From an uncultured beta proteobacterium (GTDB lineage Bacteria > Pseudomonadota > Gammaproteobacteria > Burkholderiales > SG8-41), in assembly GCA_963734595.1 (NCBI GenBank), contig CAVTHV010000018.1, forward strand, positions 248,962 through 312,961: a DNA stretch of 64,000 nt. The letters run 5' to 3'. The translations under genes were made by a program, and so were the position numbers. The notes under the pieces were generated by a model. The model did no database searches. It worked only from the letters and a program-made list of their open reading frames with translations, and was not told where the DNA came from. Each line of letters opens with the position of its first letter. Position 1 is the first letter of the stretch. Positions 5,955-61,961 of this stretch are shown piece after piece.

Positions 5955-6497
5955 ATGAGCGCAACGGTATTGCTTTACGATCCGACGGCGGCGCGCCAGG
6001 GCGCGGCGGGGCAGGCGCAGCAGGCGCTGCAGGGCCTGCGCGGCAAGGTCGTCGGTTTCATCGACAACGCCAAACCCAATTTCGAATATCTGGTCGACGA
6101 TCTCGCCGCGCAATTTCTCGGCCGCTACGGCGTCAGCCGCGTGATCAAGCGCAAGAAGCGCGCGGCATCGGTGGCGGCGGACGATGCGGTGTACGAGGAA
6201 CTCGCGCAGCAGTGCGACCTGGTGATCACCGGGTCGGGCGATTGAGGGTCGTGCGCGTCGTGGAGTATCCACGACTCCATAGAAATCGAGAAACGCGGCC
6301 GTGCCGCGATCACGGTGTGCTCGACGGCGTTTGCCACGCTGGGCCGGGCGCAGGCGCGGGCCCTCGGCCATCCCGATCTGCCGATCGCCGTCATCGCGCA
6401 TCCGTTCGGGATCCGCACGCGTGACGAGGTGCGGCAGATTGCGGCTCAGTGTGTCGAAGAGATCGTGAAACTCGTGAGCAAGGACTCTGCGAAATGA
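5955..6497 (+). CDS. UGSC-motif (seleno)protein; in-frame TGA at 6243-6245 read as selenocysteine
   Basis: GGGAGA RBS 6 nt before the ATG at 5955. ORFs 5913..6245 and 6315..6497 are in the same frame and separated only by the TGA. The joined product reads ...CDLVITGSGD-U-GSCASWSIHDSIEIEKRGRAAITVCSTAF... (a U-x-x-C motif). A hairpin follows the TGA. Confidence 0.75.
6257..6275 (+). promoter_or_regulatory. SECIS-like stem-loop downstream of UGA 6243-6245
   Basis: Perfect 7-bp stem GTCGTGG / CCACGAC with a 5-nt loop AGTAT. The stem starts 11 nt after the UGA. Confidence 0.5.
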
Positions 6498-7559
6498 GTG
6501 ACGATACGCCGGCGGAGCGCGCTGCACTGTTCGAAGCGCCCGACGATCTGGACGCGATCAACCGGCTTTACCGCGAGCGGCGCTGGAGCGACGGCCTGCC
6601 CATCGTGCCGCCGACGCAGGAGCGCGTGGCGCGCATGCTGGGCGCGACGCGCCGCGCGCGCGACGAAGTCGTTGCCGCCGTCGCCCCCGGTTACGGCGCG
6701 GCGACGGTCGAGCGGATCGCGATCAACGCCGTGCTCGCGGGATGCGACCCCGAGTACCTGCCGCTGCTGATCGCGGCGACCGAAGCGGTGGCGGCGCCCG
6801 AATTCAATCTGCAGGGCATACAGTCGACCACCAATCCGGTCGCGGTGTGGCTCATCGTCAACGGGCCCATCGCGCAGCGCCTGAACGTGAACAGCACGTT
6901 CAATTGCCTGGGGCAGGGGGCGTGGGCCAACGCCACGCTCGGCCGCGCGCTGCGATTGATCCTGCAGAACGTCGGCGGCGCGCTGCCGGGTGAAATGGAC
7001 CGGGCCACGCAGGGCCAGCCGGGCAAGTACAGCTTCTGCTGCGCCGAGAACGAGGCCGGCAATCCGTGGGAGCCGCTGCACGTCGAACGCGGATTCGCGC
7101 GCGAATGCAGCACGGTGACGGTGGTCGGCGCCGAAGGCACGATGAACATGAATTCCCATGCCAAGGACGCCGTGGAACTCGCGCGGGTGATCGCGGAGAC
7201 CATGATTCATCCGCCGAGCAACGAATACACCCACGGCGGCGAGCCGTGGCTGGTGCTCGGGCCGGAGCACGCCGAAGTTTTCCGGATGCGCCGGCTGGAG
7301 CAAGGCGGAGGTCAAGCAGCGGTTGTGGGAGCAATCGAAAATGAAAGCGGGCCGCATGAGTGCGAGGGACCTCATGCGCGCGGTCGATTCGCGCACCGCG
7401 GAACTGGGTCCGATCGGGCCCGAGACCCTGCTGCCGATCTCGGCGCGTGCCGAAGACATCGGCATCGTGGTCGCCGGCGGGCCGGGCACGCATTCGATTT
7501 ATATCCCGAGCTTCGGCAACACGCGCGCGGTGACGCGGGAAGTCGTTGACAGGCAGTGA
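6494..7559 (+). CDS. conserved hypothetical protein translationally coupled to the UGSC gene (one frameshift near 7290)
   Basis: The ATG at 6494 overlaps the UGSC stop (ATGA). The protein-like sequence (RWSDGLPIVPPTQERV...INAVLAGCDPEYLPLL...QGIQSTTNPVAVWLIVNGP...) continues in ORF 7323..7559 (...IGIVVAGGPGTHSIYIPSFGNTRAVTREV). Confidence 0.65.
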
Positions 7560-27459: not shown

Positions 27460-27471
27460 TAATTCCGGCAA

Positions 27472-28785
27472 ATGGCAGACCTCCATCACATCGTCATCGT
27501 CGGCGGCGGCGCCGGCGGCCTGGAGCTGGCGACGCGGCTGGGCGATTCGCTCGGCAGGCGCGGGCGCGCGCGCATCACGCTGATCGACCGCACGCGCACC
27601 CATCTGTGGAAACCGTTGCTGCATGAAGTTGCGGCCGGCAGCATGGACCTCGATCATCACACCCTCAACTATCTCGCCCAGGCGCGCTGGCACCACTTCC
27701 AGTTCCAGCACGGCAGCATGGACGGCCTCGACCGCGCGCGGCGCGTGGTGTCGGTGGCGCCGACGCTCGACGACGGGGGCCGCGAGCTGATCCCGCGCCG
27801 GGAGATCGGCTACGACACGCTGGTGATCGCGGTCGGCAGCCATACCAACGATTTCGGCACGCCCGGCGCGCGCGAGCATGCGATCAGCCTCGATACGCTG
27901 AAGCAGGCGGAGCTGTTTCACCAGCGGCTGATCAATGCCTGCATCCGCGCCAATGCCCAGGCCGCGCCGCTCGCGCCCGAGCAGCTCAACGTCGCGATCA
28001 TCGGTGCCGGGGCGACCGGGGTCGAGCTTGCCGCCGAGCTGCACAAGACGACGCGCGAACTGGTGGCTTATGGCCTGGAGAACATCGATCCCGAGCGCGA
28101 CATCAAGCTCACGCTGATCGAGGCCGGCCCGCGCGTGCTGCCGGCGCTGCCCGAGCGGCTGTCGGCCGCGACCGAGGAACTGCTTGCGTCGCTCAGGGTG
28201 CGGGTGCTGACCGGCGAGCGCGTCACCGAAGTGCGCGCAGACGGCGTGACGACGGCGAGCGGCAAGAAGATACCGGCGGAACTGACCGTGTGGGCGGCCG
28301 GCATCATGGCCCCCGAGTTTCTCGAAAACATCGGCGGGCTGGAGACCAACCGGCTGAATCAGCTGGTGGTGACGCAGACGCTGGAGACGACGCGCGACGC
28401 GAACGTGTTTGCCTTCGGCGACTGCGCATGTTGTCCATGGCCGGGCCATGAGCGCGGCGTGCCGCCGCGCGCGCAGGCGGCGCATCAGCAGGCCTTTCAC
28501 CTGGTGAAGAATCTGGGGCGGCGCCTTGCCGGCCGGCCGCTCAGGCCTTACGTCTACCGCGATTTCGGTTCGCTGGTTTCTCTCGGCAAATACTCGACCG
28601 TCGGCAGCCTGATGGGCGCGCTCATGGGCGGCAGCATTTTCATCGAGGGCCTGTTCGCGCGATTCATGTACGTTTCGCTCTACCGCATGCATCTCTACGC
28701 GCTGCACGGTTTCACCAAGATGCTGTTCGATACGCTGGTGCGCATGATCACGCATCGCACGGAGCCGCGCGTCAAACTTCATTAA
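27472..28785 (+). CDS. ndh: type II NADH dehydrogenase (NAD(P)/FAD-dependent oxidoreductase)
   Basis: HIVIVGGGAGGLELATRLG, a second dinucleotide fold VAIIGAGATGVELAAEL, GDCA motif. Confidence 0.9.
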   Translation: MADLHHIVIVGGGAGGLELATRLGDSLGRRGRARITLIDRTRTHLWKPLLHEVAAGSMDLDHHTLNYLAQARWHHFQFQHGSMDGLDRARRVVSVAPTLDDGGRELIPRREIGYDTLVIAVGSHTNDFGTPGAREHAISLDTLKQAELFHQRLINACIRANAQAAPLAPEQLNVAIIGAGATGVELAAELHKTTRELVAYGLENIDPERDIKLTLIEAGPRVLPALPERLSAATEELLASLRVRVLTGERVTEVRADGVTTASGKKIPAELTVWAAGIMAPEFLENIGGLETNRLNQLVVTQTLETTRDANVFAFGDCACCPWPGHERGVPPRAQAAHQQAFHLVKNLGRRLAGRPLRPYVYRDFGSLVSLGKYSTVGSLMGALMGGSIFIEGLFARFMYVSLYRMHLYALHGFTKMLFDTLVRMITHRTEPRVKLH

Positions 28786-29074: not shown

Positions 29075-29139
29075 GCGCAGCCCCGTTTGCGGGAGCGGCG
29101 TGCGGGGGCCGCAAGAGATGAGATTAGGAGAAAGATAAT

Positions 29140-29514
29140 ATGGCAACAGTGGAATTGACCAAGGACAATTTTGAAGACGTGGTGACCAAGAACGACATGG
29201 TCATTGTGGATTTCTGGGCACCGTGGTGCGGCCCCTGCAAAGGTTTCGCGCCGGTATTCGAGGCGGCGTCCGAAAAATATCAGGATGTCGTGTTTGCCAA
29301 GGTCAATACCGACATCGAGCAGGAGCTAGCGGGCCATTTCGGGATCCGCTCGATTCCGACGCTGATGATGTTCAGAGAAAAAGTGATTTTGCTTTCCCAG
29401 GCGGGCGCGCTGCCGGCCTCGGGGCTCGACAGCGTGATCACGCAGGCGAAGGCGCTCGACATGGAACAGGTGCACAAGGAGATCGCCGAGCAGCAGGCGC
29501 AGCAAAAAACCTGA
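29140..29514 (+). CDS. thioredoxin
   Basis: DFWAPWCGPCK active site and IRSIPT cis-Pro loop. Confidence 0.9.
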   Translation: MATVELTKDNFEDVVTKNDMVIVDFWAPWCGPCKGFAPVFEAASEKYQDVVFAKVNTDIEQELAGHFGIRSIPTLMMFREKVILLSQAGALPASGLDSVITQAKALDMEQVHKEIAEQQAQQKT

Positions 29515-32547: not shown

Positions 32548-35500
32548 ATGTTTAATTTTTTCATCGACCGCCCGGTCTTCTCGTACGGTCATCTCGCTGA
32601 TCATCACGCTCGCCGGCGGCGTTGCCGCAATCGGGCTGCCGATCACGCAATATCCGCAGATCGTGCCGCCGCAGGTGCAGGTGTCGACGGCGTTTCCGGG
32701 CGCCAACGCCGAATGTCGTGGCGCAATCGATCGCGGCGCCGATCGAGCAGCAGGTCAACGGCGCGCAAGAACATGATCTACATGGATTCGAAGAGCGCCA
32801 ACGACGGCACCTACAACCTGACCGTCACCTTCGATGTCGGCGCCAACCAGGACCTCGGCGGCGGTCGACGTGCAGAACCGCGTCGCGGTCGCCCAAAGCC
32901 AGCTGCCCGCCGGACGTGATCCGGCAGGGCATCACCATCCGCAAGCAGTCGACCGATTTCCTGAGCGTGCTCGCGCTCACTTCGCCCGACCGGCGGTTCG
33001 ACACGACGTTCCTCAGCAACTATGCGCTGCTCAACATCCAGGATGCGCTGGCGCGCATACCGGGAGTCGGTTTCGTGCGGATTTTCGGCGCGCGCGATTA
33101 CAGCATGCGCGATCTGGCTCGATCCCGACAAGATGGCGCGCCTGGGCGTGACGGCGGGCGATGTGCAGCGGGTGATTCAGGAGCAGAACGTCGTCGCGCC
33201 CGCGGGACGCATCGGCGTGCCACCGACGCCGAAGGGCTCGCAGATGCAGTATTCGGTCACGGTCCAGGGCCGGCTCACCAATGCGACGCAATACGAGAAC
33301 ATCGTCGTCAGCGCCGCGGGCAACGGCCAGATCGTGCGGTTGAAGGACGTGGCGCGCATCGAGCTCGGCGGCGCCGATTACTCCATCAACGTGCAGGAAA
33401 ACGGCCTGCCGGGCGTATTCATCGGCATTTTCCTGCAACCCGAAGCCAATGCGCTCGATGTCGCCAAGGGCGTAACCAAGACGATGGCGACGCTCGCGCA
33501 GCGGTTCCCGCCCGGCATGGTTTATTCGGTGCCCTACAGCACGACGCCGTTCGTCACCGAGTCGATGAAGGAGGTGGTGAAGACGCTGTTCGAAGCGGTC
33601 GTGCTGGTGCTGATCGTGGTGTTCTTGTTCCTGCAAAGCTGGCGCGCGACGCTGATCCCGATGCTGGTGGTGCCGGTGTCGCTGATCGGCACCTTCGCCG
33701 TATTTACGGCGCTTGGCTTCACGATCAACACGCTGACGCTGTTCGGGCTGGTGCTGGCCATCGGGATCGTGGTCGACGATGCGATCGTGGTGGTCGAGGC
33801 GGTGCAGCACCGGCTGGACAGCGAGCAGTTGTCGCCGCGCGATGCGACCAAAGCGGCAATGGCCGACGTCGGCGGCCCGGTCGTGGCCATCATGCTGGTG
33901 CTGTCGGCGGTATTCATTCCGGTGGCGTTCCTCGGCGGGCTGACCGGGAACCTGTATAAACAGTTCGCGCTGACGCTTGCGACGTCGGTGATGCTGTCGG
34001 CGGTGGCCGCGCTGACGCTGACCCCCGCGCTGTGCGCGCTGTTGTTGCGCCCGGCCGCGCATGAAAAGCCGCACGGCGTCGTCGGCCGGTTCTTCGACTG
34101 GTTCAATCACGTGTTCGCGTCGTTCACCAATCGCTATACGGCGTCGGTGGCGACGCTGATCCGCCATGCCGCGCTGGTGGCGCTGACTTTCGCCGTGCTG
34201 CTCGGCGCGCTCTACGGTCTGACTGGCGACCCGTCCGACCGGACTGGTGCCCGACGAGGATCAGGGCTACATGTTCGCCCTTGTGCAGTTGCCGCCCGGC
34301 GCATCGCTCGAGCGCACCAACGCGGCGGTCGCATCAATTGACCGCGATTGCCGAGGCGCAGAAAGGGCGTCGATGGCGTCGCCTCGATTTCGGGCTTCAA
34401 TCTGCTGACCGGGCTGTCGACTTCCTACAACGCGACGGCGTTCATCCGGATGAAGCCGTGGGACGAAGCGCAAGAGCCCGCGATCAAACCGCCGGCGCGA
34501 TCCTGCACGCGCTGATGGGCCGCTTCAACGGGCAGATCAAGGACGCCAACGTGCTGGTGTTCAATCCGCCGCCGATCCGCGGGCTGGGCACGGCCGGCGG
34601 TTTCGAGTTCGTCCTGCAGGATCGCGCGGGCGGCGACGTCAAGCAGTTTTCGCAGGTACTGCAGGGTTTTCTCGCCGCGGCGCGCAAGCGGCCGGAACTC
34701 GGTTTCGTGTTTGCCAACTACGATGACCGCGTGCCGCAAATCGAATACGAAGTCGATCGCGACAAGGTCAAGACCTTCGGCATCAGCTGAACGACGTGTT
34801 CTTCACGCTGCAGACGTTTCTCGGCGGCTATTACGTGAACGATTTCAACCTGTTCGGACGCACTTTCAGGGTGCAGGCGCAGGCCGAGGGCCAGGCCCGC
34901 GCGTATCCGGAGGACGTGAAGCGGTATTACGTGCGCAGCGCCAGCGGCGACATGGTGCCGCTCAGCACGGTGCTCACGGCCAAGACCATCAACGGCCCCG
35001 AGTATTTCGAGCGCTACAACATGTACCGTGCCGCCAGCATCAACGGCGCCGCGGCGCCGGGCTACAGTTCAGGCCAGGCCGCGCAGGCCATGGAGGAAAT
35101 CGCGAAGACGCTGCCTGCGGGTTATGACTATGACTGGACCGGTTCGACCTTTCAGGAGAAGAAGACCAGCGGGCAGACCGGTTATATTTTTGCGCTGTCG
35201 CTGCTGTTCGTGTTCCTGGTGCTTGCGGCGCTGTATGAAAGCTGGGCGATGCCGGTGGCCATCCTGCTGGTGATCCCGTTCGGCGCGTTCGGCGCCATCT
35301 CGGGGCTTGCGCTGCGCGAATTCGCCAACAACGTCTACGCGCAGGTCGGGCTCGTGATGCTGATCGGGCTCGCGGCGAAGAATGCGATTCTGATCGTGGA
35401 GTTCGCAAAGCTCGCCCACGAACGCGGAACATCGATCGTCGACGGCGCGTTGCAGGGTGCGCGGTTGCGGCTGCGGCCCGATCCTGATGACGTCGTTCGC

Positions 35501-35747
35501 ATTCATCCTGGGCACCCTTCCGCTCGCGATTGCAACCGGCGCCGGCGCCGGCGCCCGGCAGTCGATCGGCACGACGGTCGTGTCCGGCATGCTGTTTGCC
35601 ACCATGATCGGGATTTTCGTGATCCCCGTGTTTTATGTCGTGATCCAGCGCATCAGCGAGGGCAGGCGGCCGTTCCGGCACGACCCGTCCTCCGGCGGCC
35701 TGGGCGCGCCCGGCGTCGCCGCGGGCGCGGGGAACGAGGGGAGCTAG
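32548..35747 (+). pseudogene. efflux RND transporter permease (AcrB/HAE1-like), at least 10 frameshifts
   Basis: MFNFFIDRPVF start. Long AcrB-like blocks occur in ORFs 33022..34341, 34281..34790, 34796..35941 and 35457..35747 (e.g. ...GLVLAIGIVVDDAIVVVE..., ...[19 protein letters not shown]...). Confidence 0.85.
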
Positions 35748-35750
35748 AGC

Positions 35751-37219
35751 GTGAAGCGGAGCATTGTTATCGTCTGGATTGCGCTGCTGCTTGGCGCGTG
35801 CTCGCTCGGCCCCGACTACAAACGGCCCGACGTCAAGGTTCCGGATGCGTTTCGCGGGAGAGACGGCGCCGGCCGACAGCAAATCCCTCGCCGATCTGGC
35901 ATGGTGGGATCTCTATCGCGATCCGGTGCTGGAGAAGCTGATCAAAACCGCGTTGCGGCAGAACTACGATGTCCAGATCGCGCTGGCGCGCGTCGAGGAA
36001 TTCCGCGCGCAGGCCGGCGTCGCCGGCTTTGGCTCGATACCGCAGGTGTCGGCCGGCGGGAGCGCCACCCGCTCCCGCGTTTCGACCGTCGGGCCCGAAT
36101 CCGCTGCCGGGGAGCGCCGCGCCGGTGCGCACGACCTACGACGCCGGGATAGACGTTTCGTACGAAGTCGACTTGTGGCGGCGCATCGCCAATATCAACG
36201 AGGCGGCGAGGGCCGATCTGCTTGCCTCCGAGTTTGCGCGCGATACGGTCAGGGTTTCCGTTATCGCCAGTGTGGCCAACGCCTATTTCAATTTGCGCGC
36301 GCTCGATCAGCAGCTTTTTGTCACGCAGCGCACCGTCGCCACGCGGGAGAAATTTCTCGAGCTGACGCGCGCGCAGTTCAAGCGCGGCGTGGTGTCGGGG
36401 CTCGACGTCAATCGCGCCGAGGCCAGTCTTGCGACCGCGCGCGCTGCTGTTCCCCTTCTGAAAAGCCAGGTTGCCCAGACCGAAAACCAGCTGCAGATAT
36501 TGCTGGGAGAAAACCCCGCGCCCATCGTGCGGGAGGCCGTGTCGGATGCGCAGTATTTCCCGCTGCCGCCGGAAGTGCCCGCGGGACTGCCGGCATCGCT
36601 GCTCGAGCGGCGGCCCGATCTGCGCCAGGCGGAGAGCAATCTGCTCGGCGCGGATGCGCGCCTGAAGGCGGTCAAGGCGTCGCTGTTTCCGACCATTTCG
36701 CTGACGGGAAGCCTGGGATCGCAAAGCGCCGCGCTCTCCGACCTGTTCACCGGACCGGCGAGAATCTGGACGTTCGGCCTGGCCTTGCTGCAACCGATCA
36801 TCGACGTCAACCGCAACGTTTACCAGGTCGACATTTATACCGCGCGCGAGAAACAGGTGATGCTGCAGTACCAACAGACGGTCGCGCAGGCATTTCGCGA
36901 AGTGGCGGACGCGCTGGCTGACCGCCAGGGATTCAGCGAGTCCCTGCGCAACCAGGACGAGCAGGTCGCGGCGCTGCGCGCTGCCAACGAACGCGTGCTG
37001 AAACGTTACCGATCCGGTTACTCCTCGTATTTCGAGGTGATCGATGCCGACAGCGCCCTGTTCGCGGCGGAGCTGTTGCGCCTGCAGGTCTATCGGAACA
37101 CGTTGACCTCCCTGGTGCAGCTCTACAAGGCGCTCGGCGGTGGGTGGGAACCCCCGCCATCGACCATCGGCTCGAACGGTGGCGCCGGCGACCAGGTGGC
37201 GGGCGTCGCCCGAAAGTAA
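35751..37219 (+). pseudogene. efflux transporter outer membrane factor (NodT family lipoprotein), about 2 frameshifts
   Basis: GTG start and lipobox [13 protein letters not shown]. The rest lies in ORFs 35764.. and 35969..37219 (...LERRPDLRQAE...LFPTISLTGSLG...QLYKALGGGW). Confidence 0.8.
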
Positions 37220-38828: not shown

Positions 38829-39671
38829 ATGCGCAACCTGCCCGCGCTCTTTGTCTCGCACGGCGCCCCGACTCTGGCGCTGGAGCCCGGCGCGACCGGG
38901 GCGAGACTGCGGAGTCTGGCTGCGGCGCTGCCGCGCCCGCGGGAAATACTGGTGATTTCGGCGCATTGGGACACGGCGGTTCCGCGCGTGGGCGCCGCCG
39001 CCGCGCAAAAGCTGATTTACGATTTTTCCGGATTCCCGGACGAGCTGTACCGGATCCGCTATCCCGCTCCCGGCGCGCCGCAACTTGCGCGCAGGGTCAT
39101 CGCACTGTTGGATGAAGCCGGGATCGCTGCGGAATCCGATGCCGGGCGCGGGCTGGATCACGGCGCGTGGGTGCCGCTGCTGTTCATGTATCCGGATGCG
39201 ACGGTTCCGGTGACGCAGCTTTCGCTGCAGTCGCGGCTGGGCCCCGCTTATCATTACCGTCTCGGACAGGCATTGAGCACGCTGCGCGCGGAAGGCGTGC
39301 TGATCGTCGGCTCGGGCAGCTTTACGCATAATCTGTACGAGGTCGGCCGGCATGCCGTGGATGCGGCACCCGAGTCCTACGTCGGAGAGTTTCGCGAATG
39401 GATGCGCGCGGAGCTCAATGCCGGGCGCCTGGAGAATCTCTTCGATTACCGCCGACTCGCGCCGCACGGTGCGCGCGCCCACCCGACGGAGGAACACCTG
39501 TTGCCGCTGTTTGTCGCAATGGGTGCGGCGGGCGCGCGGCTGCAGGCACGGCACCTTCACGACGCGACGACCTACGGCATTCTGGCGATGGACATCTTCG
39601 CGTTCGGCAACGACAATGCCGGAACCGCGGCCCAAAGCAGCGATGTGCCGCATCCGCACCGGGAAAACTGA
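38829..39671 (+). CDS. class III extradiol dioxygenase (YgiD / 4,5-DOPA dioxygenase-like)
   Basis: PALFVSHGAPTLALE...ISAHW...LDHGAWVPL...GSGSFTHNL...AHPTEEHLLPL. Confidence 0.85.
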   Translation: MRNLPALFVSHGAPTLALEPGATGARLRSLAAALPRPREILVISAHWDTAVPRVGAAAAQKLIYDFSGFPDELYRIRYPAPGAPQLARRVIALLDEAGIAAESDAGRGLDHGAWVPLLFMYPDATVPVTQLSLQSRLGPAYHYRLGQALSTLRAEGVLIVGSGSFTHNLYEVGRHAVDAAPESYVGEFREWMRAELNAGRLENLFDYRRLAPHGARAHPTEEHLLPLFVAMGAAGARLQARHLHDATTYGILAMDIFAFGNDNAGTAAQSSDVPHPHREN

Positions 39672-39674
39672 AAC

Positions 39675-40655
39675 ATGGAAATGTCGAGCCTGCTTGCACA
39701 ATACGGCCTCGCGCTCGTCTTCGCCAACGTGCTGCTGGCCCAGGCCGGCGTGCCGCTGCCGGCGGTGCCGCTGCTGGTCGTGGCGGGCGCGTTCGTGGCG
39801 CACGGTCAGCTCCCGCTGGCGCCGCTCATCGCGGTCGCGATCGTGGCTTCTCTGCTCGGCGACGTGCCGTGGTATATCGCGGGCCGGCGTTACGGCTACC
39901 GCATTCTGCGCACCTTGTGCCGGATCGCGATCGAGCCCGATTCCTGCGTCAAGCAGACCGAGAACATATTCGAGCGCTGGGGCGCGCCGTCGCTGATGGT
40001 GGCCAAATTCATCCCCGGCTTTTCCACGGTCGCGCCGCCCCTGGCCGGCACCATGAAGCTGGGTTTCGGGCGGTTCGTGCTGTTCAGCGCCATCAGCGCG
40101 CTGTTGTGGGCGGGGGCGTCGATTGCCGCGGGCGCGTTTTTCAGCTCCGAAGTCGAATGGGCGCTCACGCGGCTCCAGGACATGGGCAGCGACGCGCTGC
40201 TGGTGATCGCGGCGGCCATCCTGTTCTATCTCGGCGTCAAGGCCGTCGAACGCTACCTGCTGATCCGGTTTTTGCGCATGGTGCGGATCGGCGTCGAGGA
40301 GCTGCGTCAGCTGATCACGCAAGGCGAGCGGCCGGTGATTCTCGACGCGCGCTCGGCGCTCGCGCGCCGGCAGGATCCGCGGCACATCCCCGGCGCGATC
40401 GCGGTGGACATGGTGGCGCCCGAGGCGCATCTCGCTGCGGTGGAGCCCGACCGCGACGTGGTCGTCTATTGCAGTTGACCGAACGAAGCGAGCGCGGCGC
40501 GTGTCGCCCGCCTGTTGATGGACAAGGGGTTCAAAAGGGTGCGCCCGCTCGAAGGCGGCATCGAAGCCTGGATCGCCGCCGGATGGGAAGTGGCGGTGTA
40601 TGAATCATGGATAACTGAGGAAGGAGGGGACTATGGACAAGCTCTGCGAACTTGA
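39675..40655 (+). CDS. DedA-family membrane domain fused to a rhodanese domain; in-frame TGA at 40476-40478 possibly selenocysteine
   Basis: DedA-like N-terminus (YGLALVFANVLLAQAGVPLP...). The rhodanese part reads ...DRDVVVYCS-TGA-PNEASAARVARLLMDKGFKRVRPLEGGIEAWIAAGWEV in the same frame. The part 39675..40478 is certain. The readthrough part and the 3' end (40655, overlapping doxX) are tentative. Confidence 0.55.
40494..40511 (+). promoter_or_regulatory. possible SECIS-like hairpin after UGA 40476-40478
   Basis: GCGGCG-CGTGT-CGCC(C)GC: a 6-bp stem with one bulge, loop CGUGU, starting 15 nt after the UGA. This is weak evidence in GC-rich DNA. Confidence 0.3.
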
Positions 40656-41053
40656 CGAAACAATACGGACCGCTCGGCGGCAGAATCCTGTTGTCGTTGA
40701 TGTTCATCATCTCGGGATGGGGCAAGGTCACCGGTTTCTCCGGCACCGCCGGCTACATGGCGAGCATGGGCATGCCGCATCCGGAACTGTTGCTGCCGTT
40801 TGCGATCGCCATCGAACTGGGCGGCGGCCTGATGCTGCTCTTCGGCTGGAAGACGCGCCTCGCCGCGCTTGCGATGTTCCTGTTCATCATCCCGACAACG
40901 CTCATCTTCCACAATTTCTGGGCGGCGGATGCGGCGAACGCGCAGAACCAGATGATCCATTTCATGAAGAACGTCACCATCATGGGCGGCATGCTGTACG
41001 TGATGGCCTTCGGCGCCGGACCGCTGAGCCTCGACAACCGCAAGAGCGGCTGA
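40633..41053 (+). CDS. DoxX family membrane protein, one frameshift near 40652
   Basis: GAAGGAGGGG RBS plus ATG at 40633 (MDKLCEL), then the frame of ORF 40652..41053 (TKQYGPLGGRILLSLMFIISGWGK...). The N-terminus parallels the paralog at 46812 (MEALCRLSQTYAPLLGRILL). Confidence 0.8.
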
Positions 41054-46763: not shown

Positions 46764-46811
46764 CGGCCGATCGGCATCTCGTATTGTTGTTCATACTTCA
46801 AAGGGGGAGAC

Positions 46812-47228
46812 ATGGAAGCACTATGCAGGTTATCGCAGACCTACGCGCCGTTGCTCGGGCGCATTTTGCTGTCGTTCATTTTTTTGCAGTCGGCTTACGA
46901 GAAAATCTTTCATTTCCCGCAAACCGTGGCGCTGATGAACTCGAAGGGCATACCGATGGCGGAAGTGCTGCTGGTGCCGACGATCATCATCCTGCTCGGC
47001 GGCGGACTCATGCTCCTCTTCGGCTGGTATGCGCGCTGGGGCGCGCTCGCGCTGTTCGTGTTCATGGTGCCCGCCACGCTGTTTTTCCATTCCTACTGGA
47101 CCTACCCCGAAGCGCAGCAGCTCAACCAGTTCCATCACCTGACGAAAAACATCGCGATAATGGGCGCGCTGCTGATCATCCTCGGCATCGGCTCGGGTCC
47201 GCTGAGCCTCAAGAGCGAAAAACATTGA
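46812..47228 (+). CDS. DoxX family membrane protein
   Basis: LLGRILLSFIFLQSAYEKI...GGGLMLLFGWYARWGALAL... It is a paralog of 40633..41053. Confidence 0.85.
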   Translation: MEALCRLSQTYAPLLGRILLSFIFLQSAYEKIFHFPQTVALMNSKGIPMAEVLLVPTIIILLGGGLMLLFGWYARWGALALFVFMVPATLFFHSYWTYPEAQQLNQFHHLTKNIAIMGALLIILGIGSGPLSLKSEKH

Positions 47229-54535: not shown

Positions 54536-55739
54536 ATGAAGGTCATGGTCACGCCGCTTACCTCCGCGCCGGTCGCAGCCCGGCCGGTGGAAATCGTGGA
54601 GCGCAAGGGCACCGGCCATCCGGACACCATCTGCGATGCGCTGGCGGAGGAACTCAGCATCGCGCTGTCGAAGTTCTACCTCGAGCGCTGCGGCCTCATC
54701 CTGCATCACAACGTCGACAAGGCACTGCTGTGGGGCGGCGCGGCGCGCGCCGGCTTCGGCGGCGGCGAGGTGCTGCAGCCGATCGAACTGTTTCTCGCCG
54801 GACGCGCGACGCGCGAATTCCGCGGCATCGAGGTGCCGCTCGAGGAAATCGCGGTCGAGTCGACGCGGCGCTGGCTGAAAAACAACCTGCGGGCGCTCGA
54901 CGCCGAGCGCCATGTCCGCATCCATTGCCTGCTGCGGCCCAGTTCCGCCGCGCTCGTCGACCTGTTCCTGCGCCAGCGCGAAAGCGGCGTCGTGCTCGCC
55001 AACGACACGTCCTGCGGCGTCGGCTATGCGCCGCTCGATGCGCTCGAGACGCATGGTGCTGCGCGTCGAGCGCCACCTGAATTCGGCCGCGGCGCGCAGC
55101 GCCTGTCCCGCCATCGGCGAGGACATCAAGGTGATGGGGGTGCGCACCGGCGAGACGTTCCATCTCACCGTCGCCTGCGCCTTCATCGCGGCAGAGGTGA
55201 GGGACATGGCCGCGTACCAGGCGCACAAGGCGCGGGTGCGGGCGCTCGCGCTCGATGCGGCGCGCACGATCAGCAAGGCGCCGGTCGACGTGATGGTCAA
55301 TGCCGCCGACGGCGACACCGAGGACAGCGTCTACCTCACCGTCACCGGCACCTCGGCCGAGGCCGGCGACGACGGCGAGGTGGGGCGCGGCAACCGCGTC
55401 AACGGCCTGATCACGCCGTGCCGCCCGATGAGCATGGAGGCGGCGGCGGGCAAAAACCCGGTGAGCCACGTCGGCAAGCTCTATCACCTGGTTGCGGGGC
55501 GGATCACGCACCAGCTCGTCGCCGAGATTGCGGAGATCACCGAGGCGCAATGCCTGCTGGTGAGCGCCATCGGCCACCCGGTCGATCAGCCGCAGATCGC
55601 GGAGGTGAAGGTGCGCCTGACGGAGGTGCGTGCGCTCGGCGCGGTCGAGCCGCGCGTCGCGGCGGTGGTGCGCGACAACCTCGCAGGCATCAACTTACTG
55701 TGGCGGGAAGTGGTGGCCGGCAAGCAGCCGGTGTGGTGA
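54536..55739 (+). CDS. archaeal-type S-adenosylmethionine synthetase (methionine adenosyltransferase), one frameshift near 55045
   Basis: ...[18 protein letters not shown]...HHNVDKAL...[14 protein letters not shown], then in ORF 54912..55739 ...[10 protein letters not shown]...[47 protein letters not shown]... Confidence 0.75.
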
Positions 55740-58217: not shown

Positions 58218-61200
58218 TTGAAAATTGACCCCGAACAGCGCCTGCGCAATCTGCCGCAGCCGACTTACCCCGAAGACCTGCCGGTCGTCGCCCGGCGCGA
58301 GGAGATCGCGCGCGCCATCGCCGCCAACCAGGTCGTCATCGTCTGCGGCGAGACCGGCTCGGGCAAGACCACGCAGCTGCCCAAGATCTGCCTCGAGCTG
58401 AAGCGCGGCGTCGCCGGCCTGATCGGCCACACGCAGCCGCGGCGCATCGCCGCGCGCACCGTCGCCGCGCGCATCGCCCAGGAACTGAAATCCCCGCTCG
58501 GCCACGCCGTCGGCTTCAAGGTGCGCTTCGCCGACAAGCTGTCGGCCAACACCTACATCAAGCTCATGACCGACGGCATCCTGCTCGCCGAAACCCAGGG
58601 CGACCGGCTGCTGAACGCCTACGACACGCTGATCATCGACGAGGCGCACGAGCGCAGCCTCAACATCGATTTCCTGCTCGGGCTATGTGAAGCGCATCCT
58701 GCCGCAGCGTCCCGATCTCAAGCTGATCGTCACCTCGGCCACCATCGACGCCGAGCGCTTCTCGCAGCACTTCGACGACGCGCCGGTGATCGAAGTCTCG
58801 GGCCGCACTGTATCCGGTGGAGATGCGCTACCGGCCGCTCGCCGCCAGTGACGACGACGAGCAGGAACAGGACATGGAGCAGGCGATCCTCGACGCCGCG
58901 GACGAGCTCGCGCGCGAGCGCGCGGGCGGCGACATCCTGGTGTTCCTGCCCGGCGAGCGCGAGATCCGCGACACCGCCGAGCTCCTGCGCAAGCACCATC
59001 CGCCGGGCACCGAAATCCTGCCGCTCTATGCGCGGCTGTCGTTCGAGGAGCAGGAGCGCGTGTTCCAGCCCGGCGGCGCGCGCCGCATCGTGCTCGCCAC
59101 CAACGTCGCCGAAACCTCGCTCACCGTGCCCGGCATCCATTACGTGATCGACACCGGGCTCGCGCGCATGAACCGCTACAGCTACCGCAACAAGGTCGAG
59201 CAGCTGCAGGTCGAGAAAATCTCGCGCGCCTCCGCCAACCAGCGCGCCGGCCGCTGCGGGCGGGTGGCGGCGGGCGTGTGCATCCGGCTTTACGCGGAAG
59301 AGGATTACGCGGCGCGGCCCGAGTTCACCGACCCGAGATCCTGCGCTCGTCGCTGGCGGCGGTGATCCTGCGCATGAAGTCGCTGAGGATCGGCGAGATC
59401 GAGGACTTTCCGTTTCTCGAGCCGCCGACCCCGCGCATGATCGCCGACGGCTACCAGCTGCTGGCCGAGCTCGGCGCGGTCGACGAAAACAACCAGCTGA
59501 CGCCGGTCGGCTGGCAGCTCGCGAAATTCCCGATCGACCCGCGCATCGCGCGCATGATCGTCGCCGCGAAACAGGAGAACTGTCTCACCGAGGTGCTGAT
59601 CATCGCTTCCGCGCTGACGGTGCAGGACCCGCGCGAGCGGCCGTTCGAGCGCGCCGAGGCCGCCGACCGCGCGCACCAGGCTTTCCAGGACGAGCGCTCG
59701 GACTTCCTCGCCTATCTCAAGCTGTGGGCGTTCTTCGAGGAGGCGCTGAAGCACAAGAAGTCGAACCGCAAGCTCGCGGAACTGCTGCACGCGAACTTTC
59801 TGTCGCACCGGCGCATGCGCGAATGGCGCGACATCCACGGCCAGCTCGCCGCGCTACACGGGCGAGCTCGGCATGCTCGCCAACGAGACGCCGGCGAGCT
59901 TCGAGCAGATCCACCGCGCGCTGCTCGCGGGGCTGCTCGGCAACATCGGCTTCAAGAACGAGGAGGGCGAGTATCTCGGCGCGCGCGCGATCAAGTTCGC
60001 GATCTTCCCCGGCTCGGTGCTGCGCAAAGCGCAGCCCAAATGGGTGATGGCCGCCGAACTGACCGAGACCACGCGGCTCTACGCGCGCTGCGTCGCGAAA
60101 ATCGATCCGGAATGGATAGAGCCGGTGGCGCAAGCGCTGGTCAAAAAGCATTACTTCGATCCGCACTGGGAAAAGGAGCGCGCGATGGTGGTCGCGTTCG
60201 AGCGCGTCACGCTCTACGGCCTCACCATCGTCGCCAAGCGCCGCGTGCACTACGGCCCGATCGACCCGAAGGAAGCGCGCGAAATTTTCATCCGCCGCGC
60301 GCTCGCCGCCGGCGACTACCTGACGCGCTCGACGTTTTATGAACACAATCAACGGCTTATTAAAGAAGTGCAGGAACTCGAGCACAAGGCGCGGCGGCGC
60401 GACGTGCTGGTCGACGAGCAGGTGATTTTCGAGTTCTACGATGCGCTGATCCCGCCGGGCATCCACAACGGCGCGGCGTTCGAGAAATGGCGGCGCGAGG
60501 CCGAAGCGCAAGGACCCGAAGCTGCTGTACCTGACGCGCGACTACCTGATGCGGCACGCGGCCTCCGATATCACGGAAGCGCAGTTCCCGGAAACGCTCG
60601 CCGCGGCCGGCACCGAACTTGCGCTCAAGTACCGTTTCGATCCCGGCCACGCGCTCGACGGCGTGACGGCGACCGTGCCGCTGCATCTGCTGAACCAGCT
60701 CGAGGCGGCGGACTTCGACTGGCTGGTGCCGGGACTGATCCGCGACAAGGTTGCGTTCGCGTTCAAGGCGCTGCCGAAAACGATCCGCAGAAACCTGGTG
60801 CCGGTGCCGGAACAGGTGACCGGCATTCCTGACGGAATGCGAAAAGCGGGAGGCGGGAGGCGGGAGGACGGGAACCGCTTGCGGACGGCGCTCGCGCGCG
60901 TATCGTGCAGCGCGCAGTGGGTGCGCCGGTGGCGGCCGAGGTGCTGGAGGCGATCGACTACCCGCCGCATCTCAGGATGAATTTCCGCGTCGTCGACGAC
61001 GCCGGGCGCGAACTGGCGGGCGGGCGCGATCTCGCCGCGCTGAAGGCGCAGCTTGAGCCAGGCGGCGCAGCTCACGTTCGGCAAAGCCGAGCCCGGCATC
61101 GAGCGCGACAACATCCGCACCTGGGACTTCGGCGACCTGCCGCGGGAAATTGCGTTCGACCGCGGCGGCCACCGGCTGACCGGCTACCCGGCGCTGGTGG

Positions 61201-61961
61201 ACGAGGGCGACAGCGTCGCGATCCGCCTGTTCGACGTGCCGCAGACCGCCGAGGCGGCGATGCGCGCCGGCGTCACGCGCCTGATGCGCCTCATGCTCAA
61301 GGAGCAGATGAAGCAGCTCGAAAAGGGCCTGCGCGGCTTCGAGCAGGCGGCGCTGCAGCTGCGCGCCGTCGCGAACGCGGACGATTTGCGCGGGGACCTG
61401 ATCGCCGCGATCACCGACCGCGCGTTCATCGGCGAGGACGCGCTGCCGCGCACGCAGCAGGAATTCGAGGTCCAGGTGAAGCGCGCGCGCACGCGCCTGC
61501 CGGCGGTGAGCGAGGCGGCGTGCCGGCTGTTCGTCGCGATCGCCGCCGAATATCACAGCGTGTCGCTGAAGCTCGGCGGCAGCGGCGGGGCGCTCGCGCG
61601 CGTCGCGGCCGACGTGCGCGCGCAACTCGCGCGGCTCGTCTGCAAGGGCTTTATCAGCGCGACGCCGTGGGAGCAGCTCGCGCATCTGCCGCGCTATCTG
61701 AAGGCGCTGGCGCTGCGGCTCGAAAAATATGCGCGCGATCCCGCGCGCGACGCGAAGCACGCGCAAAGCATCGCCGAGCTGTGGAAGCGTTACGAGGAAA
61801 GACTGGACAAGCAGAGGAAGGCGGGCGCGGTGGATCCGCGGCTGGAGGAATTCCGCTGGCAGCTCGAAGAGCTGCGGGTGTCGCTGTTCGCGCAGGAGCT
61901 GAAGACGCCGTACCCGGTGTCCTACAAGCGGCTGGACAAGATCTGGAATGCGATGCGGTGA
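58218..61961 (+). pseudogene. hrpA: ATP-dependent RNA helicase HrpA, about 7 frameshifts
   Basis: [48 protein letters not shown] and QRAGRCGR motifs, plus the long HrpA C-terminal region, distributed over ORFs 58218.., 58817.., 59278.., 59873.., 60549.., 60905.., 61053..61961. Confidence 0.85.

Follow-up and report, generated by a model that had tools for sequence, protein, structure and literature searches.

The stretch of DNA described here is a 64,000-nucleotide window of contig CAVTHV010000018.1 (assembly GCA_963734595.1), from an uncultured betaproteobacterium; all positions are counted within it. The subject of this report is a forward-strand gene at 39675–40655 whose product would join a DedA/VTT membrane domain to a rhodanese domain, and whose reading frame contains a TGA codon that may specify selenocysteine (Sec) rather than termination. 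The frame starts at ATG 39675, runs through ...AVEPDRDVVVYCS (ending in DRDVVVYCS), and meets TGA at 40476–40478; beyond this codon the same frame continues as PNEASAARVARLLMDKGFKRVRPLEGGIEAWIAAGWEV, in full PNEASAARVARLLMDKGFKRVRPLEGGIEAWIAAGWEVAVYESWITEEGGDYGQALRT, as far as a second TGA at 40653–40655. The database version of the gene covers only 39675–40478, approximately 267–268 amino acids. TGA also serves as an ordinary stop codon in the source genome, where the LigB-type gene upstream terminates at TGA 39669–39671.

Translation, Pfam, and tblastn of relatives delimit a read-through coding sequence of 326 residues, counting the residue at the first TGA (Sec268). With TGA read as a residue, Pfam places the VTT/DedA membrane domain at residues 28–154 (39756–40136; PF09335, 51.2 bits, cut-off 33.9). 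A rhodanese domain that is complete and spans the TGA follows at residues 207–301 (40293–40577; PF00581, 53 bits, cut-off 22.2). An in-frame TGA directly after DRDVVVYCS, with the remainder of a rhodanese beyond it, was the starting claim of a first-pass annotation made from the letters alone, and translation and Pfam agree with it. The tblastn alignments of relatives cross the TGA, reaching about residue 305–325, and the gene aligns with its relatives free of frameshifts to residue ~311. The AlphaFold2 model (predicted local distance difference test, pLDDT, 77) is helical up to residue 204, and a basic stretch, ERYLLIRFLRMVR, separates the last long helix from the rhodanese; by the positive-inside rule, this stretch suggests a cytoplasmic rhodanese. 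A single polypeptide of about 326 residues, with an N-terminal DedA/VTT domain and a C-terminal single-domain rhodanese, is well supported as the reading of 39675–40655.

The position of the TGA within the rhodanese fold bears directly on what the codon may encode. In phmmer comparisons with PDB sequences, the TGA column aligns with the cysteine of YFYCGGGFRS / IYLYCGSGFRS (6mxv) and VNCAGRTRS (1yt8), which, by the established rhodanese signature, we take to be the catalytic cysteine heading the CX5 loop. Sec268 is therefore strongly supported as occupying the position of the catalytic nucleophile, in the loop U-P-N-E-A-S, and Cys266 (TGC 40470–40472), two residues upstream on the same strand, as an extra, family-specific cysteine and the candidate partner thiol of a C-x-U motif. 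The first-pass annotation had placed the TGA where a second cysteine normally sits; homologs do have Cys there, but the column is the catalytic one rather than an accessory position. By Foldseek, the modelled fold is that of a single-domain rhodanese, with matches that include 3ilm, GlpE 1gmx, and YgaP 5hbl. Among the 50 matches listed there is no DedA-like structure, and all those with E <= 0.001 are rhodanese-domain structures.

Homologous proteins are almost uniformly cut at this column. A search of ~5.8 billion proteins yielded a best 120 homologs at 67–100% identity, 115 of which are 265–280 amino acids long (81–82% query cover); four have 316–323 amino acids and one is a fragment. Every short homolog retrieved (9/9) stops at ...VVVYCS. 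The four long ones (P0003, P0010, P0012, P0014) carry YC[SN]CPNE, reading YCSCPNEASAARVAR or YCNCPNEVSAARVAR, with Cys at the TGA column; the loop motif given in the first-pass annotation is thus borne out by full-length homologs.

At the nucleotide level, the codon is strikingly conserved. When bacterial species were scanned, each represented by one genome, 543 relatives were detected, of which the best 80 (50–80% protein identity; labelled mostly as uncultured Burkholderiales or Betaproteobacteria metagenome-assembled genomes) were kept. Together with the window these make 81 genomes, and TGA stands at the Sec268 column in 81/81, as a proposed ortholog alignment was meant to determine. Cys266 is invariant in the same 81 genomes and in the Cys forms, and distant Cys-form representatives retain both cysteines (C-x-C-P-N/D-E). 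After the TGA, the continuation PNEASAARVAR.LM..G...VRPL.GG...W is kept in frame across the 81 genomes; over the 37–45 codons downstream, this frame retains its protein sequence while the codons vary synonymously, except in the hairpin described below, and past that hairpin third-position entropy exceeds first- and second-position entropy, a coding signature. Sequence beyond ~40590 is not conserved among the relatives.

A minority of relatives have TGC or TGT at this column. Metagenome contigs were scanned for the pattern Y-C-x-(TGA/TGC/TGT)-P-N-E-A with the downstream sequence left free; the first 120 matches comprise 78 with TGA, 26 with TGC, and 16 with TGT, and a DedA domain lies upstream in 91 of them. 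Loci L085–L091 likewise have TGC or TGT at the Sec column. Two species representatives may be decaying: L051 has an in-frame TAG 19 codons past the TGA, within the rhodanese remainder, and L064 has ACG/ACC in the hairpin, which changes Ala to Thr twice and breaks two pairs. Nine loci of this betaproteobacterial type (L001, L012, L020, L021, L031, L057, L060, L074, L075) stand in records titled 'uncultured Streptomycetaceae', 'Streptomyces sp.', 'Chitinophaga pinensis', or 'Bordetella parapertussis', which are probably wrong taxon labels.

These comparisons decide the fate of one alternative raised in the first-pass annotation, namely that TGC became TGA in this one genome alone, through a plain nonsense mutation (with the gene now a pseudogene) or a base-call error. 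Only a single base separates the Cys and Sec forms, and the assembly is prone to indels, with split genes that include an AcrB-like gene, an HrpA-like helicase gene, and the start of doxX. However, the assembly's errors are indels, not substitutions; the same TGA recurs in 80/80 other species-level genomes and in the 78 metagenome contigs; and selection acts on both the downstream frame and the hairpin. Among raw data, the best indexed sequencing run contains at most 47% of sampled words, and only related-strain contigs could be aligned to the window; these independent soil-metagenome contigs, which cover 40268–40514, differ from it at 40466, 40469, and 40535 and are identical at 40476–40478. 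The conserved TGA and the agreeing soil contigs together exclude a private nonsense mutation or base-call error, and we assign this explanation next to no probability.

Evidence for recoding of the codon as Sec also comes from the sequence just downstream of it. A seven-codon block, AGC GCG GCG CGT GTC GCC CGC (40491–40511), is near-invariant at all three codon positions: third-position entropy within it is 0–0.26 bits, compared with 0.39–1.8 bits in the flanking codons of the 81 genomes; third positions ahead of the TGA, and in the first four codons following it, range without restraint at 0.6–1.7 bits. Synonymous variation resumes after 40511, and CGT is retained in 81/81. Such frozen synonymous sites are expected where codons also encode an RNA element. 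The first-pass annotation had described a weak hairpin at 40494–40511 with loop CGUGU. Its location, loop, and weak energy all hold, and the comparative evidence strongly supports a bacterial selenocysteine insertion sequence (SECIS). The candidate SECIS consists of a 5' arm GCGGCG, the loop CGUGU at 40500–40504, and a 3' arm CGC(C)CGC. Its core helix pairs 40496–40499 with 40505–40508, and the loop begins 21 nucleotides after the UGA.

Covariation was assessed in 124 distinct Sec sequences, with positions counted from the U of UGA. Pair 21–33 is GC in 61, CG in 54, UA in 8, and UG in 1; pair 24–30 is CG in 65, GC in 57, and UG in 2; pairs 22–32 and 23–31 are set by Ala codons and fixed. The two covarying pairs each link two third-codon positions (wobble–wobble). 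In the Sec forms 99.8% of cells are paired, and covariation scores 0.537, compared with 0.125 in shuffled alignments, with 0/500 shuffles as high. The 46 Cys-coding sequences, which are subject to identical codon constraints, serve as a control: there the two variable pairs are formed in just 39%. Another large clade of Sec forms (...UPNEATSARVALLL...) has AGC GCC CGU GUG GCG CU, with a loop of CGUGU or CGGGU and a different but complementary stem, and G occupies loop position 2 in every loop variant listed. Among the Cys-form kin of the window gene, relic hairpins carry synonymous changes (GTC to GTT in L089, GCG to GCC and GCC to GCT in L090, CGC to CGG in L085 and L087), a pattern of decay that fits relaxation after loss of Sec. 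The check proposed for the hairpin in the first-pass annotation therefore finds nucleotide-level selection, with compensatory changes in Sec forms only; like all the other checks from that annotation that could be carried out, it favors Sec. The distance from the UGA and the G at loop position 2 agree with bacterial SECIS rules. Because covariation is confined to the Sec forms and the synonymous sites are near-invariant, the hairpin at 40494–40511 is very probably a bacterial SECIS. The minimum-free-energy register (loop UGU, bulged C40498) was considered and rejected, as it pairs in only 46–50% of Sec sequences. Rfam returned no match at gathering thresholds across the whole window, and in permissive mode over 40400–40600 it returned only chance-level ALIL and c-di-GMP-II; neither search yielded a family that fits the hairpin.

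Several observations weigh against Sec insertion directed by this hairpin, or against the proposals that follow from it. The single-sequence folding energy is unremarkable (z = +1.09 in a 55-nucleotide context, z = -1.23 for the 18-mer). The covariation largely amounts to a difference between the two clades, with independent compensatory events numbering only ~3–5, and partners slid by +/-3 columns also pair in part, because GCN codons impose a periodicity. The Sec machinery is likewise missing from the sequence at hand: selA, selB, selD, and a gene for tRNA-Sec are all absent from the 64-kb window, Pfam scans of ~50 window open reading frames (ORFs) found no SelA, SelB, or SelD domain, ARAGORN found no tRNA of any type in the window or in 60 related loci, and tblastn across 1.93 Mb of related loci found no SelD or SelB with approximate E. 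coli query sequences. Finally, the functional proposal given below rests on domain identity and gene neighborhood, and doxX is adjacent in only ~1/3 of loci.

The unremarkable energy would also suit a UGA that is a genuine, conserved stop, the product being a 267-residue DedA protein with a rhodanese stub and the downstream sequence some other RNA element or a separately expressed remnant. Gene callers and the NCBI and JGI annotations treat the codon in this way. But past the TGA the encoded protein sequence is conserved while its codons vary synonymously, except within the hairpin; this segment supplies the missing part of a rhodanese fold in which the TGA column is the catalytic position, and it lacks its own start codon. 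Further, Cys-coding relatives make the uninterrupted protein, and where TGC or TGT replaces TGA the pairing of the hairpin is lost. We regard a genuine stop as very improbable.

Absence of the Sec machinery from the window and the 1.93 Mb of related loci would be accommodated by read-through of the UGA stimulated by the hairpin, in which a near-cognate tRNA (Trp, Cys, or Arg) inserts its amino acid and no selenocysteine is involved. Against this, homologs that lack the TGA invariably encode Cys rather than Trp or Arg, which is the signature of Sec/Cys exchange; the hairpin, in its distance and loop G, follows the SECIS rules noted above; and the motif defines a curated (seleno)protein family, NF041203. 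A second recognised selenoprotein gene in the same window also argues against near-cognate read-through, which we consider very improbable.

This second gene is the UGSC-family (seleno)protein gene that the first-pass annotation had invoked, and it is real: on the forward strand at 5955–6497, it has an in-frame TGA at 6243–6245 within the motif U-G-S-C and scores 131.9 bits against NF041046, above the cut-off of 125. Its hairpin (6257–6275, GUCGUGG-AGUAU-CCACGAC) starts 11 nucleotides after the UGA, has z = -4.3, and puts G23 and U24 where they lie in E. coli fdhF. A UGSC gene with TGA in the same window is indirect support for Sec use by this organism. Elsewhere in the window, a pyridine-nucleotide-disulfide oxidoreductase gene (27463–28782, forward strand) has TIGR03169 'Nterm_to_SelD' as its top NCBIfam match, at 145.9 bits and below the cut-off of 310, with no SelD domain attached; a thioredoxin gene follows it on the same strand (29128–29511).

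With these points on both sides, we hold with high confidence, on comparative grounds, that UGA 40476–40478 is decoded as selenocysteine with a comparatively validated SECIS. In mechanistic terms, the hairpin (core 40496–40508, loop CGUGU) would bring SelB, loaded with Sec-tRNA(Sec), to the ribosome; such a hairpin must be kept, and the S-A-A-R-V-A-R codons would therefore be frozen at synonymous sites. Sec268 would then accept sulfane sulfur or become oxidised, with Cys266 resolving the resulting intermediate as a selenenylsulfide. The first-pass annotation had called a Cys-x-Sec pair in a sulfurtransferase loop chemically interesting; it is not new chemistry, since this motif already defines the LYCAU (seleno)protein family NF041203.

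The surroundings of the gene offer some indication of its context. In close relatives the order is pirin, WrbA, LigB-type dioxygenase, fusion gene, DoxX, MFS_3, and nitroreductase. The doxX gene lies directly downstream in 23 of the 71 loci with enough sequence, and pirin and nitroreductase lie within 4 kb in ~35/80 loci. Judged from domain content and these neighbors, the protein is probably a membrane-tethered sulfurtransferase or thiol–selenol oxidoreductase, and probably acts in a context of quinone or electrophile stress with the doxX, wrbA, pirin, LigB-type dioxygenase, MFS_3, and nitroreductase products.

The DedA domain may contribute more than attachment to the membrane. It contains a Cys82-x8-Cys91 pair (TGC 39918–39920 and TGC 39945–39947, forward strand; context LCRIAIEPDSCVKQTE), both members of which are invariant among close relatives (alignments A1, A2). 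The pair is kept in 14/16 distant DedA–rhodanese representatives inspected; P0211, a distant Cys form, is without both cysteines. This pair may be a redox partner of the C-x-U center. It is conceivable, though on present evidence unlikely, that Cys82-x8-Cys91 and Cys266-x-Sec268 form a membrane-embedded thiol–selenol relay in which the DedA domain is more than an anchor; an exchange of sulfane sulfur, of selenium, or of reducing equivalents would then link a DedA-type membrane pathway to a quinone-linked DoxX. If true, this would be a type of membrane oxidoreductase for sulfur or selenium that has not been described before, widespread among Betaproteobacteria of soil and related soil bacteria, and would give DedA proteins a redox-coupled function.

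The 3' end of the fusion gene overlaps doxX (40633–41053, forward strand; PF07681 DoxX, 87.5 bits), as the first-pass annotation had noted for the in-frame stop at 40653–40655. In relatives, doxX begins MDKLCEAVKQYGPL, at an ATG equivalent to 40633. Compared with L001–L004, L081, and L089, the window doxX has one extra base after MDKLCE, changes frame, and resumes at TTG 40652, overlapping the fusion stop; its 5' end thus appears frameshifted in the assembly. The fusion protein of relatives ends a few codons past ...AVYE, or runs on similarly (P0003). A second DoxX paralogue (46764–47225, forward strand; PF07681, 72 bits) lies 6 kb downstream, after SMP-30/gluconolactonase-like and TctC-family genes.

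Many genes of the window are partial or split over frames, with affected regions at 32965–35938, 58790–61958, 6425–7559, 54879–55736, and 40633–40655. The AcrB-like gene matches Pfam profile positions 183–542 and 731–965 in separate ORFs, and the HrpA-like helicase is spread across at least four ORFs; the gene adjoining UGSC changes frame near 7206–7300, and an archaeal-type S-adenosylmethionine (AdoMet) synthetase covers profile positions 170–395 only. With so many genes split across frames, indel errors in the assembly are likely; the pattern suggests an indel-prone, perhaps long-read, assembly rather than real pseudogenes.

The identification of this gene suggests that a widespread family is cut at its catalytic residue in public databases, as reflected in the 115 short entries among the best 120. 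Named NCBI and JGI entries call the protein 'VTT domain-containing protein' or 'DedA' and end at the TGA, and surveys of domains, functions, and selenoproteomes therefore miss the family. Hundreds of records would be corrected by a dedicated model, or by a fusion-aware rule with a lower score. With this fusion, the CxU rhodanese selenoproteins gain an architecture that is membrane-bound. It also shows one Sec module, SECIS included, attached to more than one kind of membrane protein (DedA in the window, a CPA1-type antiporter in other loci), and widens Sec use among uncultured Burkholderiales of soils and wetlands. It also provides a clean natural SECIS written wholly inside conserved codons, with an internal control, because the change from TGA to TGC or TGT is accompanied by loss of pairing. 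The C-x-U motif, the C-x8-C pair, and the doxX neighborhood supply concrete functional hypotheses.

Among known systems, the closest is NF041203 ('rhodanese_LYCAU, rhodanese-related (seleno)protein'), the top NCBIfam match of the window protein at 68.8 bits, below the cut-off of 115. The fusion falls under this cut-off and is therefore not named a selenoprotein and is annotated in truncated form. Of the five Sec-rhodanese forms distinguished in a 2026 review (PMC13188914), form 3 corresponds to NF041203 and has the motif CxU; the main text of that review mentions neither DedA, VTT, nor SNARE. The window protein shares with NF041203 the rhodanese subfamily, the YC-x-U-PNEA motif (VYCSUPNEAS in the window, LYCAUPNEATS in the stand-alone proteins), the Sec column, and a SECIS hairpin in the same codons at equal distance from the UGA. 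However, members of NF041203 are stand-alone proteins of ~125–145 amino acids, whereas the window protein carries the module behind a ~200-residue DedA/VTT domain. Three stand-alone LYCAU rhodanese selenoproteins were encountered (L123, L145, L153) with hydrophobic, signal-peptide-like N-termini, so that the module may work outside the cytoplasm in some lineages; the two that were scored, L123 and L145, reach 188 bits against NF041203, and the loop in L123, GGUCU, is reminiscent of E. coli fdhF. A DedA fusion of the second clade (L105) scores 81 bits (80.7). In L140, L164, and L183, a YCAUPNEATSARVAQ rhodanese module with TGA and hairpin stands behind a ~420-residue membrane domain similar to CPA1-type cation/proton antiporters (NF003716, 152 bits, below cut-off); L140 scores 100 bits against NF041203. 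With the DedA and antiporter fusions, the Sec module is therefore joined to at least two different membrane proteins.

Other systems share parts of this architecture. TsoB (NF045694, a rhodanese/DsbD fusion-like selenoprotein, 'form 5' in PMC13188914) likewise combines a Sec rhodanese with a polytopic membrane domain containing conserved cysteines, but its membrane partner is DsbD-like and its motif is UxxxxU, with two Sec. NF045694 is not among the NCBIfam matches of the window protein. E. coli YgaP is also a single rhodanese tethered to the inner membrane, and its structures match (5hbl, 5hbo); however, its rhodanese is N-terminal to two transmembrane helices and has a catalytic Cys, and the protein is not known to carry Sec, C-x-C, or a DedA domain. 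The N-terminal domain belongs with the DedA/VTT family (E. coli YqjA/YghB, UptA undecaprenyl-phosphate transporters, eukaryotic VMP1/TMEM41B) by its PF09335 score, but falls far short of the NCBIfam equivalog cut-offs for DedA and UptA (55 versus 236 and 42 versus 300 bits), so that no specific DedA function can be assigned. DedA has been linked to selenite uptake in Ralstonia metallidurans (reviewed in PMC11422209), which offers a lead rather than a finding of this study. The C-terminal rhodanese, and perhaps the conserved C-x8-C pair, set the window protein apart from this family, and the literature searched contained no DedA–rhodanese selenoprotein fusion. In M. tuberculosis, DoxX, SseA, and SodA reportedly form a membrane oxidoreductase complex in thiol and oxidative-stress homeostasis (Nambi et al. 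2015). That system resembles the one described here in associating DoxX with a rhodanese-type sulfurtransferase, doxX being the gene that directly follows the fusion in 23/71 loci; unlike the window protein, SseA is a soluble two-domain Cys enzyme, and the association here is one of gene adjacency only, in ~1/3 of relatives. Set beside these systems, the DedA fusion has an architecture for which these scans yielded no NCBIfam model, and the Sec module with its SECIS is of a known kind.

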